Shown here one piece after another: positions 57,805-62,924 of a stretch of 64,000 bases of DNA. The position numbers were made by a program, and so were the translations under genes. The DNA comes from Candidatus Omnitrophota bacterium (GTDB taxonomy: Bacteria > Omnitrophota > Gorgyraeia > Gygaellales > Profunditerraquicolaceae): NCBI GenBank assembly GCA_025453395.1, contig JALOQK010000002.1, forward strand, positions 474,509 through 538,508. Direction: 5' to 3'. Numbering within the stretch: position 1 is the first letter of the stretch; each line of letters starts with the position of its first letter. The notes beneath the pieces are model-generated. The model saw nothing but the letters and a program-made list of their open reading frames with translations. It was not told the DNA's origin and did not search any database.

Positions 57805-59301
57805 TTAATCTTTCACTTTTCCGATCATATAGAAATTCTTGGCATCCACTTTATCCATCCTGCCGTCAATAATCTTAGCGCAACTTTCTATCAAATCAGG
57901 GATCGTCACATATTCGCCTTTTTTACCAATATATATTTCTCCGACAACAAACGGCTGGGTCATAAAATTAATCATTTTCTCCGCGCGGGTATAAGAGCTC
58001 CTGTCTTCTTTGGATAACTCTTCAAGGCCTATAACCTGGACTATCTTATAAAGCTGCCTGTACTTATTAAGCAAAAATATCACCTGCTGCGAGATATCAT
58101 AATGTTTTCTCCCCACAATATTATAGTCAAGGTTAGTACATGAGCCTGTCAACGGGTCTATGGCAGGATAAATACCTTTCTGGACTAATTCACGGGAAAG
58201 AGTAATAACTGAATCCAGGTAACTAAATATCGCAACGACTGCCGGATCAGTGAAGTCATCTGCCGGAACATATACCGCCTGAAACGCCGTGATAGAACCC
58301 CCTCCTTCTATGGAGCGAATACGCTCTTGAACCGCGGCTACTTCTGAAGCAAGTGTCGGCTGGTAGCCGGTTTCTGAAGGAACGCGCCCCAAAAGTGTTG
58401 ATACTTCAGCGCCTCCCTGCACAAACCTGAATATATTGTCCATAAATAAAAGCACATCTTTGTTCTTAGACGCCAGATATTCTGCCATAGTAATCCCGGT
58501 ATTCACCACTTCATAACGCGCTCCTGGAGGCTGGTCCATCTGCCCAAAGGCCAGCATTACCTTATCTAAAAGATTGTGCTCCTTTAGCTCATAATAAAGT
58601 TCGTTTCCCTCGCGGATACGCTCTCCTATTCCGCAAAACACGCACGCGCCGCTATGCTTACTGACAATATTATTAATAAGTTCCAAGATAATAACTGACT
58701 TACCGCAGCCGGCTCCCCCTAAGACTCCAGTTTTACTGCCCTTTACCAAAGGATATAATAAATCAATGACCTTGATGCCAGTCTCCAAAACCTCGGGCTT
58801 TGAACCCAGCTTATCGCATATATTAAAAACATTCTTTGGCACAGGCCTGCGGATAGGATGTTTTACTCCGGTATCAATAATAGGCCCTTTATCTAAAGGT
58901 TTTCCGGACACGTCCACAACCCTGCCAAACAATTCATCCCCGATAGGTATTTTAACCGAAGAGCCCGTATCAAAAACATCCGCGTTTTTCTGTAAATTAA
59001 GCGTTGAAGACAAAGATATGCATCTGGCGCGCGTACTTGTAATATGCTCTGCCACCTCCATCAATACTTCGCGGCCATCAAAAGTCTTGGTGGTAAGCAG
59101 GATAAAAAGCGAAGGGGTAGTCTTGCTGGGAGGAAACTCCACGTCTACAACCGGGCCCTGCACAGCGACTATCTTGCCAGGAATAGGATCCACAGACAAA
59201 GAATCTGTCGCAGGCTGCTCTACAGGAGCTTGCGCTTTTTCTTTTTCTAATCCGTCTTGCGTGATAGCGCTGTCTTCGGGTTTATTGTCAATATTTGGCA
59301 T
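57805..59301 (-). CDS. atpD: F-type ATP synthase F1 beta subunit, with a ~40-aa N-terminal extension
   Basis: [15 protein letters not shown], Walker [19 protein letters not shown], and [22 protein letters not shown] matching the beta GVGERTREGNDLYHEM motif. The N-terminus [36 protein letters not shown] precedes the canonical start. Confidence 0.9.
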
Positions 59302-59302
59302 A

Positions 59303-60178
59303 TTATGCTGATTTAGTATTTACCATCCGCGAAGCAAAAACCTCGGCCAAGCTTTTTGATATGTCTGATTTGCGCGATTTCTTAACAGCAACGCCTAATA
59401 GAAGTTTTTCTTTCTTAAGCCTATCTCCCGCTGATTCCAACTGTTGGACCTGCGCGGCAAACCCGGAACACTCGCAATTCATAAGAAGCTCATAGATCCT
59501 GCAGGTAAGCCAAAGCGAAGCTAAATACCCTAAGATATCATTTTTATCTGACTCCACAACAACATGCTCTATGGATTCCTCTTTTGGCTCTTCTTTATTA
59601 TCTACAGGAAAAGCCTCCGTTGAGGGGAATAATACCGCAACTTTTGGCCTGATTAAATTAATATTTATCGCAAAAGGATAAACCGCGACAATTTTACCGA
59701 TCCTGCCCTCCATAACTTCATTAATAATATAATCCTTGGTATTGATGCTGGTTTTATAATTGCCATTCTTATGTATATCGGTCACAACATGCACTTTTTT
59801 TGTCTTGCCTAGTACCGCTTTAATTTTCTCTCCAGCTTTATTTCCTAAAACAATGATATCGTTGGCATTATTCTTATCGGCTTCCGCCTGCATACTGCGT
59901 ATTAAACGTGAATTCATATCTCCCATAAACGCGGATTCGCTTGAGACAACTAAAATAGCTGTAGCATTTGACTTAGGATGCACAAGCGGATGATCGGTCC
60001 CGAAAAACGAAGCCATCTTAAAGAAATCCGTAAAGTAAGTTACAAAATCAATCAATATCTGTTTGCTTTTAGCCGATTTTTGAAAAAGAGTAGTAGCAAT
60101 ATCCTTAAGGATCAAAATAAGGTCCAGGATTTCAGCCGTATCATCATAATCTATTTTCAATTTTTTGGTTTTAGACAT
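59303..60178 (-). CDS. atpG: F-type ATP synthase gamma subunit
   Basis: 291 aa, helical N- and C-termini (C-terminal ...[28 protein letters not shown]) in the gamma-typical position between b/delta and beta. The sequence is divergent. Confidence 0.65.
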
Positions 60179-60190
60179 GCGCGCCCTAAG

Positions 60191-60943: not shown

Positions 60944-61159
60944 TTATTTAGCTCCAAAAAGCTGAAAAATAACTAACAGTCCTAAAATAGCCAACACCTC
61001 TACAAAAACAAGTATGATTATTGTACCCATTAATATTTTTGATGCCGACGATGGATTTCTCCCCAGCGCCTTTATGGTAGAATAACCTATAGCGGCAATA
61101 ACCGCTGAAGGCCCTAAAATTACAACCCCGACTATTAAAAGCACAATAACTGTATTCAT
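60944..61159 (-). CDS. atpE: F-type ATP synthase c subunit (proteolipid)
   Basis: 71 aa, two hydrophobic helices with a loop (GRNPSSASK) and the conserved carboxylate in helix 2 (FVEVLAILGL). Confidence 0.75.
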   Translation of the reverse strand: MNTVIVLLIVGVVILGPSAVIAAIGYSTIKALGRNPSSASKILMGTIIILVFVEVLAILGLLVIFQLFGAK

Positions 61160-61405
61160 CTAATCTCCCACCTCAACTATGGCCACACAATCATTTCTTA
61201 AGAATTTAATTATCCCTCTGTTAATGCTTATCGCCTCTTGCCAATCTATGATAATATCCCCTTTGCCCAAAAGACTCATGATCGGGTAATGGCAAGATAA
61301 AAGCTCAAACTCTCCTTTTTCTCCTGGGACAAAAACAGTAGAAACATCTCCTTTATAGAGAATAGAATCGATATCCAGCACCGTAAAGAAAAATTTACCG
61401 ATCAT
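61160..61405 (-). CDS. atpC: F-type ATP synthase epsilon subunit, beta-sandwich domain only (C-terminal helical hairpin absent)
   Basis: 81 aa. FTVLDIDSILYKGDVSTVFVPGEKGEFELLSCHYPIMSLLGKGDIII parallels the epsilon N-terminal pattern (L.VV..E...F.G.V..V.V.G.EGE.GIL.GH.PL...L..G...I). Confidence 0.6.
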   Translation of the reverse strand: MIGKFFFTVLDIDSILYKGDVSTVFVPGEKGEFELLSCHYPIMSLLGKGDIIIDWQEAISINRGIIKFLRNDCVAIVEVGD

Positions 61406-61406
61406 C

Positions 61407-62924
61407 CTATTTATTCGCTGAAATGGTAATTTCCTGAACAGCAGCTTCTTGTTCCTGCCCTTCAGCAGCTCTTTTTTCCATAAGCACTTTCAGGTAATCA
61501 TTGATCAGAAAAATCAACTCTTGCTCAATGCCTTCATCAAAATCCCTTTTAGCGCGCAGCTTTTGTAAAACTTCAGGATTCCGCTTAAACGCAAAATCAT
61601 ATATTTCTTCTTTAAATATAGCGATCTCTCCCATTTCCAGATCTTCCAATAAGCCTTTATTATGAGCTAAGAACATAAGCACTTCCCCTTCCATGGGTAC
61701 CGGCTTATCGCGGTCTTGTTTTAAAAGCTCATACAAAATCTTGCCCTTACCCAATTCCCTCTCTGTTTCTTCGCTCTGACCGGAAGCCTTAAGCCGTGAC
61801 AAACGCTGCAATTCTTCAAAACGCACATATTCAAGACGCAGGGTCTTACTTACCTTTTTTATCGCCGGCCATTGCACTTTGCTTCCGATACGGGAAACTG
61901 ATAAACCTATACCGACCGCTGGCTTAAAGGCATCATTAAAAAGCTGCGCGCTTAAATAAAGCTGTCCATCGGTCATAGATACTAAATTTGATGGCACATA
62001 ACCTGTTAAATCGCCTTCCAGAAGTTCAACAATAGGCAAAAATGTCATTGAGCCTCCGCCTTTTTCTTTATTTAATTTAGCCGCGCGCTCAATCATTCTG
62101 GAATGCAAATAAAATACATCTCCCGGATAAGATTCTCTTCCGGGGGGCCTGCCTAAAATAAGCGATATTTCTCGATATGCCCAGGCATGCTTGGTAAAAT
62201 CATCAAAGATTACCAGCACATCCCTGCCTTGATTCATAAAAAGCTCGCCTATGGAACTAGCCACGTATGGCGCCAGATACATCTGCCCCGGAGGCTGCCC
62301 CGCCATAGCAGCGACAATGATCCCGTAATCAAACATATCGAATTTCTTAAACAACTCCACAACCCTGCTCATGGCTGCTTTAGATTTACCAATTGAACAG
62401 TATATACAAATAACGTTCTTACCTTTTTGATTAATAATAATGTCAGTACAGAGAGTCGTCTTGCCGGTCATTTTATCTCCTAATATAAGCTCTCTCTGTC
62501 CTTTGCCAATGGGGATTATGGTATCTATTATTTTTATCCCCGTCTCAAGCGTTTCTTTGATAATTTCTCTCTCCAGGATAGACGGAGCTTCAGGAAAAAT
62601 AGGAAGATAAACTTCTGGAGGGATAACTCCCAAGCCATCCAAAGGCTCACCTAAAACATTAACCATGCGCCCCAGATATTTACTGCTTACGGGGACATTG
62701 AACGGCTCCAAGGTCATGGTTGCGGTATCTCCGGTTTTTATCGGCTCCTGCTCTTTAACAATAAGAACTTGCGTTTCATCCTCAGAAAAACCAATAATCA
62801 TGCCCAGCGTACCATAACCAAATCTAATCAACTGCCCATTAATACAATGTTCAAGGCCTTTAATGGTCACAATACAACCGCGGACCGCTTTAACCAAACC
62901 AAACTCTTTATACTGTAGGCTCAT
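61407..62924 (-). CDS. atpA: F-type ATP synthase F1 alpha subunit
   Basis: 505 aa. Walker A GDKMTGKTTLCTDIIINQKGKNVICIYCSIGKSKAAMSRV matches alpha GDRQTGKTA...IINQKG...CIYVAIGQKAS (recalled from memory). Confidence 0.9.
   Translation of the reverse strand: MSLQYKEFGLVKAVRGCIVTIKGLEHCINGQLIRFGYGTLGMIIGFSEDETQVLIVKEQEPIKTGDTATMTLEPFNVPVSSKYLGRMVNVLGEPLDGLGVIPPEVYLPIFPEAPSILEREIIKETLETGIKIIDTIIPIGKGQRELILGDKMTGKTTLCTDIIINQKGKNVICIYCSIGKSKAAMSRVVELFKKFDMFDYGIIVAAMAGQPPGQMYLAPYVASSIGELFMNQGRDVLVIFDDFTKHAWAYREISLILGRPPGRESYPGDVFYLHSRMIERAAKLNKEKGGGSMTFLPIVELLEGDLTGYVPSNLVSMTDGQLYLSAQLFNDAFKPAVGIGLSVSRIGSKVQWPAIKKVSKTLRLEYVRFEELQRLSRLKASGQSEETERELGKGKILYELLKQDRDKPVPMEGEVLMFLAHNKGLLEDLEMGEIAIFKEEIYDFAFKRNPEVLQKLRAKRDFDEGIEQELIFLINDYLKVLMEKRAAEGQEQEAAVQEITISANK

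Follow-up and report, generated by a model that had tools for sequence, protein, structure and literature searches.

Introduction

F-type ATPases are textbook ion-coupled rotary machines, and the canonical bacterial F1Fo enzyme, encoded in the order atpBEFHAGDC, comprises a subunit a, a free delta subunit and a two-domain epsilon subunit. Here we describe a divergent F-type ATPase locus in a 64-kb stretch of DNA, hereafter the window, from a metagenome-assembled genome of Candidatus Omnitrophota. None of those three elements is found at this locus, the gene order differs from the canonical one, and the ATPase genes, which lie on the minus strand, are embedded in a probable pilus/secretion operon.

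Loci of this type have a published record. Seymour et al. (2023, Nat Microbiol; PMC10066038) reported a non-respiratory "symbiotic" F-type ATPase beside type IVa pilus clusters in all classes of the Omnitrophota, the two lying no more than 10 kb apart on 57 of 66 contigs. In their tree the alpha subunits group with those of Mycoplasma type 2/3 ATPases; the Omnitrophota sequences make up a monophyletic non-respiratory clade separate from the "respiratory" F-type found in some Omnitrophota. The authors proposed that the enzyme acts in attachment to host cells or in motility on them. Their source data attribute to genome no. 58 a full F-type set and to genome no. 221 the KEGG Orthology (KO) entries K02111 and K02112 together with V-type subunits, without K02108-K02110 and K02113-K02115. 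The searchable text and supplements of that study present the alpha/beta phylogeny and the adjacency only, with no description of subunit composition.

For chemiosmosis, Omnitrophota are reported to use a V-type ATP synthase (PMC8542988; bioRxiv 10.64898/2026.06.07.730766). The second of these sources, a preprint, reports F-type alpha and beta subunits in 125 of 176 complete genomes and gamma in 30 of them with a strict threshold or 35 with a relaxed one, and calls the complex incomplete. West-Roberts et al. (2023) described loci resembling type II secretion systems beside giant genes, without mentioning the F-type ATPase. Beyond Seymour et al., the literature searched yielded nothing relevant on F-type ATPases that lack subunit a and are linked to pili.

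A precedent for an F-type ATPase serving the cell surface comes from Mycoplasma, in which atypical enzymes of this family power surface machinery (PMC3369863, PMC12994834, PMC11864180). The Mycoplasma cluster comprises seven genes, encoding alpha-, beta-, gamma- and epsilon-like subunits and three unique proteins, two of which are membrane proteins with 3 and 12 transmembrane (TM) helices; it contains no a, b, c or delta subunit (PMC3369863).

Results

Subunit composition of the ATPase

Open reading frames (ORFs) were assigned using Pfam and NCBIfam profiles, comparing bit scores with the cutoff of each model, and the alpha, beta and b-delta subunits were also aligned against solved structures in the PDB. 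The resulting assignments (Table 1) define a six-gene block in the order alpha - epsilon - c - b-delta - gamma - beta, in which consecutive ORFs are separated by 1, 0, 9, 12 and 1 nucleotides (nt), and the beta stop codon is followed exactly 13 nt later, in the junction sequence read directly, by the ATG of gspE/pilB. A first-pass annotation of this DNA had proposed this gene order and this junction, together with an epsilon subunit of 81 amino acids (aa) consisting of the beta-sandwich domain only, a b subunit whose C-terminus resembles the C-terminal domain of delta/OSCP, and an atpD with an N-terminal extension of ~40 aa. All of these ORFs were recovered on the minus strand, with Pfam and NCBIfam in agreement, and the alignments detailed below bear out each of the three domain-level proposals.

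The alpha, beta, gamma, c and b subunits and the N-terminal domain of epsilon are homologous to those of canonical F1Fo, and the catalytic and rotor motifs are intact. Both alpha and beta pass the NCBI equivalog cutoffs for canonical atpA and atpD, and their best matches in the PDB are canonical bacterial F1 subunits. The P-loop of the alpha subunit reads GDKMTGKT in the window and GD[KR]MTGKT in 34 of 34 family members, with an SVSR arginine finger in 33 of them and SISR in the other. The GGAGCGK[T/S], GERIREGN and Walker B motifs of beta are likewise invariant (37/37). The N-termini of both proteins depart from the canonical form. The alpha subunit has no counterpart of the ~20-residue N-terminal helix, starting at the equivalent of residue 21-23, with its residue 3 aligning to residue 23 of Bacillus-type alpha, and this short N-terminus is shared by all 34 family members. 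In beta, the profile alignment begins only at residue 42, leaving a low-complexity extension of ~40 aa that differs in length and sequence among family members.

The two subunits of the central stalk are more divergent. Gamma exceeds the cutoff of its Pfam model and scores 62.8 bits with TIGR01146, under the cutoff of 194, and the family alignment shows it to be divergent yet complete. The PF02823 match of epsilon, above cutoff and with no other domain present, spans profile positions 3-76 of 80 and aligns with the epsilon N-terminal domain. The protein thus retains the beta-sandwich, which is the part that docks on the c ring, and the C-terminal helical (inhibitory) domain is absent in 35 of 35 family members, most of which have only a short charged tail in its place.

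In the membrane rotor, both the helix-2 glutamate of the c subunit (FVE/FAE) and its RNPS loop are invariant in 36 of 36 sequences. Most relatives carry a second hairpin gene, here named c', between c and b (for instance at 12212-12433 of locus L002 and 5275-5571 of locus L003, and in 29 other loci). Pfam does not recognize c', which aligns to c using hhalign with a probability of 97% and an E-value of 7.5e-11, the two glutamates coinciding; this residue is retained in 30 of 31 c' sequences. The distribution of c' suggests a putative hetero-oligomeric ring in most lineages. The gene is absent from the window, in which only positions 60935-60943 separate c from b, and from the clade to which the window belongs (L001, L005, L007 and L008).

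The b-delta fusion is composed of an N-terminal TM helix and a b-type coiled coil followed by the C-terminal domain of delta/OSCP. The part matching b chains in alignments spans residues 8-137, and residues 165-234 align to residues 101-170 of E. coli delta (E 3e-08). The OSCP match covers only profile positions 100-168 of 172, the N-terminal domain of delta being absent. In canonical enzymes this N-terminal domain is bound by the N-terminal helices of alpha, and the joint loss of the two interacting parts therefore points to a coherent remodelling of the stator rather than to annotation noise. The fusion is widespread, with at least 257 representatives of 50%-identity clusters at E<=1e-10, nearly all of them ~245 aa long and aligning end to end. 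Among ten sampled members, all ten combine b with the delta C-terminal domain and none reaches the cutoff for the b subunit of N-ATPases.

N-ATPases (atpDCQRBEFAG) resemble the enzyme described here in having no separate delta and a b subunit of ~246 aa to which the fusion aligns end to end (TIGR03321 positions 8-240 of 246). They differ from it in gene order and in having AtpQ, AtpR and a subunit a, whereas the present loci include no extra small membrane genes other than the c' of relatives. Membership in the N-ATPase class was rejected, as the scores with TIGR03324 (487 versus a cutoff of 750.5), TIGR03305 (467 versus 752) and TIGR03321 (37.5 versus 224.7) all lie under the cutoffs.

Conservation of the locus

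Relatives were identified by scanning GTDB species genomes with an alignment of 12 gamma sequences, which yielded 40 further loci, with flanks of up to 10 kb on each side and many of them shortened by contig ends, whose ORFs were labelled by local BLAST. Together with four contig look-ups, this gave 44 examined loci. Scanning the same genomes with a single alpha protein as the query returned no confirmed relatives, the patterns being too specific. Homologue searches retrieved 15 proteins for gamma and 8 for up450, the conserved gene immediately upstream of atpA, and the multiple sequence alignment of the latter is therefore shallow.

The comparison of operon order across related genomes, which the first-pass annotation had put forward as a check, reveals the same order, on a single strand, in the four look-ups and in the 40 GTDB species: giant ORF - up450 - alpha - epsilon - c - (c') - b/delta - gamma - beta - GspE(PilZ) - GspF - (peptidase_MA) - GspG - GspJ - GspK - PilMN. 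GspE adjoins beta in all 36 loci long enough to show it, at a median distance of 15 nt, and synteny with pilus genes is seen in all 44 loci, one of which lies on a 3.36-Mb chromosome (OY759724.1). All six ATPase genes are intact in the 40 species, and the best conserved among them are alpha, beta and c, with median between-clade identities of 58%, 61% and 57%, respectively. Judged by this synteny, the arrangement is a phylum-wide conserved module and not a peculiarity of this genome. Furthermore, G+C content is 0.39-0.43 throughout the window, and the idea of an island acquired by horizontal gene transfer was rejected on this basis.

NCBI entries identical to the alpha, gamma and up450 proteins of the window carry the name of a Candidatus Omnitrophica metagenome-assembled genome. 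The best 120 homologues of the alpha subunit share 57-100% identity with it, and many are named Omnitrophota or Omnitrophica. The great majority of the 40 loci stem from records titled Omnitrophota or "uncultured Planctomycetales", and the other titles are two Omnitrophica WOR_2, two Candidatus Aceula (an Omnitrophota genus) and one "Patescibacteria group". Several records carrying this Omnitrophota-type locus (L006, L007, L009-L012 and others) are titled "uncultured Planctomycetales" or "Patescibacteria group", and these titles are probably placeholder or mistaken taxonomic labels.

Absence of subunit a and of a free delta from the locus

The window was searched for subunit a (PF00119) and for a second OSCP domain using Pfam on all called genes and a direct scan of ORFs with at least three TM helices. 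Neither was found, in agreement with the first-pass annotation, which had reported no subunit a and no separate delta. Subunit a was also not found in the 10 kb beyond the low end of the window or in the 4.3 kb that separate its high end from the end of the contig. The same annotation had named a conventionally arranged atpB or delta gene just outside the window as the observation that would count against it; those 4.3 kb contain only the 5' part of the gene for the 432-aa anchored protein up450 and the 3' portion of a gene whose repeat protein is at least 1352 aa long. Among the 40 related loci, neither a separate delta nor an unassigned polytopic ORF fit to be subunit a was identified, and the sole unassigned polytopic ORFs are antisense artefacts inside the giant gene.

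A substitute for the arginine of subunit a was also sought by eye. No conserved mid-membrane arginine or lysine was seen in the TM helix of the b subunit from the window and three relatives, nor in the TM helix of up450 in three sequences.

A conserved promoter-like element upstream of atpA

Gaps between genes are short across the block, with medians of 9-34 nt; the exception is the spacer between up450 and atpA, with a median of 103 nt. In the window, this spacer contains a promoter-like element with an extended -10 (Table 1), which is the best minus-strand match of a consensus scan and was also read directly in the sequence. The consensus promoter/terminator scan by itself did not exceed the expectation from shuffled sequences (38 versus 36.6 and 18 versus 13.2, respectively), and it is the cross-species comparison, not the scan, that makes the atpA promoter credible. 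Of the 33 homologous spacers, 30 carry the motif TGnTATAAT upstream of atpA, and near matches are seen in the other three. Furthermore, 31 of its 40 plus-strand occurrences in ~610 kb of related loci are upstream of alpha, and none of the remaining nine lies upstream of gspE. The motif is located 8-76 nt from the atpA start codon, and the clade of the window has a very short leader of 8-11 nt.

These patterns suggest a probable promoter at atpA with read-through into the pilus genes. Co-transcription of the ATPase and the pilus genes, which the first-pass annotation had taken to be implied by the 13-nt junction, is strengthened by the median gap of 15 nt and by the placement of the promoter at atpA only, making it probable rather than proven.

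Conserved genes upstream of the ATPase block

The gene upstream of atpA had been described as encoding a coiled-coil membrane-anchored protein rather than subunit a, and up450 is indeed predicted to be a secreted coiled-coil protein anchored at its C-terminus. It comprises a signal peptide and two repeats, each made of a seven-strand beta-sandwich and a three-helix bundle, and ends with a TM helix followed by a short cytoplasmic tail. In each of the 33 loci that include upstream DNA, a homologue of 420-520 aa is found immediately upstream of alpha. The protein matches none of the Pfam or NCBIfam families, and comparison of its AlphaFold2 model (mean predicted local distance difference test score of 78.7) with PDB folds gave no meaningful match (best E 0.076, TM-score <0.2) and hence no functional clue.

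A giant secreted repeat protein is encoded just past the high end of the window (L001 3-4061; at least 1352 aa), always two genes upstream of atpA. Its C-terminal 450 aa, composed of 13-residue "GINWxDxSxLSNx" repeats and a helical end domain that terminates in VVK[ST]W[LF]E, are conserved in 32 of 32 loci with upstream DNA. The shortest version, of 1324 aa in L034, carries an N-terminal Laminin_G_3 lectin domain, and the longest, of 7092 aa, is that of L002, a complete chromosome; in nearly every case the ORF runs off the locus, and many contigs end inside the gene. A Pfam match of the protein to Ntox33 was discarded as a repeat artefact, no stretch being significant by itself.

Pilus genes and the remainder of the window

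Downstream of beta, the window encodes the assembly ATPase, the platform protein and the pseudopilin/assembly gene set listed in Table 1. The presence of MshEN and PilZ on one GspE/PilB protein amounts to two putative cyclic di-GMP-binding modules and is conserved in the relatives looked up. Most relatives have a Peptidase_MA_2 gene between gspF and gspG (L002 19136-19996), which is absent from the clade of the window.

The remainder of the window is a glycan-biosynthesis island of ~47 kb, with glycosyltransferases, B12-radical SAM enzymes, NeuB and an oligosaccharyltransferase of the STT3 type. It includes a tandem array of four paralogous genes for B12-binding radical SAM proteins of 488-501 aa each (31730-37673, minus strand), and further radical SAM/SPASM genes are located at 2516-3637 and 6432-7496. 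The 837-aa STT3/PglB-type oligosaccharyltransferase (47515-50028) is the only large plus-strand gene. It adjoins the PilO-like gene, with the pilus cluster on one side and the glycan island on the other, a position which may point to pilins or the giant protein being glycosylated.

Table 1. Features of the ATPase locus and the adjoining pilus cluster, in window coordinates and listed in the direction of the minus strand.
Feature	Position	Strand	Description
up450 (3' part of gene)	62976-64000	-	432-aa conserved protein; first 92 codons past the window end; full ORF at L001 4063-5361
Promoter-like element	62934-62962	-	TTGAGC-17-TATAAT, extended -10 (TGATATAAT); in the 51-nt spacer upstream of atpA
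F1 alpha	61407-62924	-	505 aa; PF00006 and PF00306; TIGR00962 (atpA) 518 bits, cutoff 484
Epsilon, beta-sandwich only	61160-61405	-	81 aa; PF02823 35 bits, cutoff 27
c subunit	60944-61159	-	71-aa hairpin; RNPS loop; helix-2 glutamate; PF00137 34.4 bits, cutoff 24
b-delta fusion	60191-60934	-	247 aa; PF00430 at residues 9-137; PF00213 (OSCP) at residues 168-235
Gamma, divergent	59303-60178	-	291 aa; PF00231 77 bits, cutoff 39.9
F1 beta	57805-59301	-	498 aa; TIGR01039 (atpD) 534 bits, cutoff 463
GspE/PilB-type assembly ATPase	55632-57791	-	N-terminal MshEN (PF05157), PF00437, C-terminal PilZ (PF07238)
GspF/PilC platform protein	54425-55630	-	PF00482
Pseudopilin/assembly gene set	50033-54412	-	Assigned with Pfam
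GspG-like	53996-54412	-	
N-methyl minor pilin	53611-54078	-	
GspJ	53040-53621	-	
GspK	52024-53052	-	
PilM-PilN fusion	50591-52021	-	
PilO/GspM-like	50033-50587	-	

Discussion

The window belongs to the type of locus that was published in 2023, with which it shares an Omnitrophota host and an F-type ATPase near a type IVa pilus cluster, here at 13 nt against a published criterion of 10 kb. The anatomy of the enzyme at the level of subunits, the c' paralogue, the promoter and the conserved genes upstream are additions for which no description was found in the literature searched. The searchable text and supplements of Seymour et al. do not describe the lack of subunit a at the locus, which we document across 40 loci, the c/c' pair or the fusion of b to the C-terminal domain of delta. 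Nor do they describe the losses of the alpha N-terminal helix and of the epsilon C-terminal domain, up450, the giant GINW-repeat gene or the promoter. Furthermore, the divergence of gamma, b, c and epsilon could explain part of the shortfall in the preprint that called the complex incomplete, with the reservation that gamma was still detected in just 35 of 176 genomes at its relaxed threshold.

We propose, with a probability of roughly 60%, that the enzyme is an accessory ATP-driven rotary motor of the pilus/giant-protein apparatus and not the ATP synthase of the cell. In the mechanism envisaged, a predicted catalytically competent alpha3beta3 head would be connected through a gamma/epsilon central stalk to a c ring in the inner membrane, made of c plus c' in most relatives, and would be held by a slimmed peripheral stalk consisting of the b-delta C-terminal domain fusion alone. 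The enzyme would run in the direction of ATP hydrolysis, as suggested by the loss of the inhibitory C-terminal domain of epsilon and by the published use of V-type ATPases for chemiosmosis, and would serve the pilus/giant-protein apparatus, a functional coupling to which synteny and the probable operon both point. The output of rotation could be ion pumping through an unrecognized or distantly encoded a-like partner or torque delivered to a co-encoded membrane protein. "ATP synthase" probably overstates the role of this enzyme.

Several observations weigh against this proposal. The strict conservation of the c-subunit carboxylate and of the RNPS loop is hard to explain without ion exchange with an a-like half-channel protein, and the invariant glutamate thus speaks for a ring that still exchanges ions, with an a-like partner encoded elsewhere or gone unrecognized. 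Both alpha and beta exceed the NCBI equivalog cutoffs for genuine atpA and atpD. Lastly, the published list for genome no. 221, the one genome-level indication that subunit a is absent, rests on KO thresholds at which the b, c, gamma and epsilon subunits of this enzyme were missed too.

As a sub-case of the accessory-motor proposal, the enzyme may have no subunit a at all, the torque of the c/c' ring being taken up by a co-encoded membrane component. Both the lack of subunit a throughout these loci and the precedents in Mycoplasma argue for such a mechanical use, and the candidate receivers of the torque would be the GspF/PilMNO platform, the anchored protein up450 (432 aa in this genome) and the giant repeat protein. 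We know of no route by which a c ring without subunit a could translocate ions. We hold this sub-case as a tentative and rather doubtful option.

One alternative is that of an ordinary F1Fo ATP synthase that translocates ions and whose operon is split, the gene for subunit a lying elsewhere in the genome and the adjacency to pilus genes being without functional meaning. Split atp operons are known in other bacteria, and the equivalog scores and best PDB matches of alpha and beta, the invariant c glutamate and RNPS loop and the intact catalytic motifs are all as expected for such an enzyme. Chance adjacency, in contrast, is at odds with GspE following beta in 36 of 36 loci at a median of 15 nt with no promoter element between them. 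The family-wide loss of the delta N-terminal domain, the alpha N-terminal helix and the epsilon C-terminal domain is unlike what is seen in housekeeping enzymes. The published record adds a non-respiratory alpha clade, the V-type enzyme reported as the common chemiosmotic one, and the single genome (no. 221) whose KO list includes alpha and beta and lacks subunit a. We consider a split-operon synthase unlikely.

The published label "type 2/3" would instead make the enzyme a member of the Mycoplasma "F1-like X0" family, which includes the gliding G1-ATPase and the ATPase associated with MIB-MIP. The clustering of alpha subunits in the tree of Seymour et al. favors this assignment, and both are accessory F-type ATPases tied to surface machinery. 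Each stands beside another energy-conserving ATPase, is genetically tied to a surface machine with very large surface proteins and is believed to be an ATP-driven motor. Profile scores, in contrast, fall under the cutoffs of the gliding models NF045863/NF045858 (MMOB1660, 410 versus 600; MMOB1670, 421 versus 850) and of NF045936/NF045934 (MSC_0619, 291 versus 520; MSC_0618, 393 versus 570), whereas those of canonical atpA and atpD are passed. The beta subunit of the M. mobile G1-ATPase (9io5) is the weakest of 58 PDB matches to beta, with 343 bits compared to 390-465 for canonical chains. Furthermore, the genuine c and b-delta subunits present here are lacking in the Mycoplasma clusters, which have no delta and carry X0 membrane proteins instead. 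The X0 proteins with 3 and 12 TM helices are absent from all 40 loci, and Mycoplasma has no pilus system. Membership in that family is accordingly very improbable.

Finally, a decaying and non-functional F1Fo remnant that has lost atpB and atpH would explain the missing a and delta subunits and regulatory epsilon domain, but is scarcely credible given six intact genes in 40 species, invariant catalytic and rotor residues, 58-61% identity of alpha and beta across clades, a conserved promoter and a c' paralogue retained in most lineages.

The locus is thus a further member of a published class that is mechanistically unexplored. As judged from the alignments, the enzyme is conserved across the phylum under strong purifying selection, with its rotor and ion-binding glutamate kept. 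One outcome would be that a highly divergent or relocated stator is still to be found. The other would be a rotary engine repurposed for mechanical work at the surface, which would parallel the Mycoplasma gliding and MIB-MIP ATPases while having evolved independently and kept its membrane rotor. If subunit a turned out to be absent from the whole genome, the locus would gain greatly in significance. KO-based pathway annotation that scores an "F-type ATPase" as present or incomplete in these genomes lumps together two distinct machines. The finding is also relevant to host attachment or attack by ultra-small, possibly predatory Omnitrophota and, if a drive without subunit a proves true, it would represent a rotary mechanical drive of a new kind, serving a pilus or surface-fibre apparatus involved in host attachment or predation.

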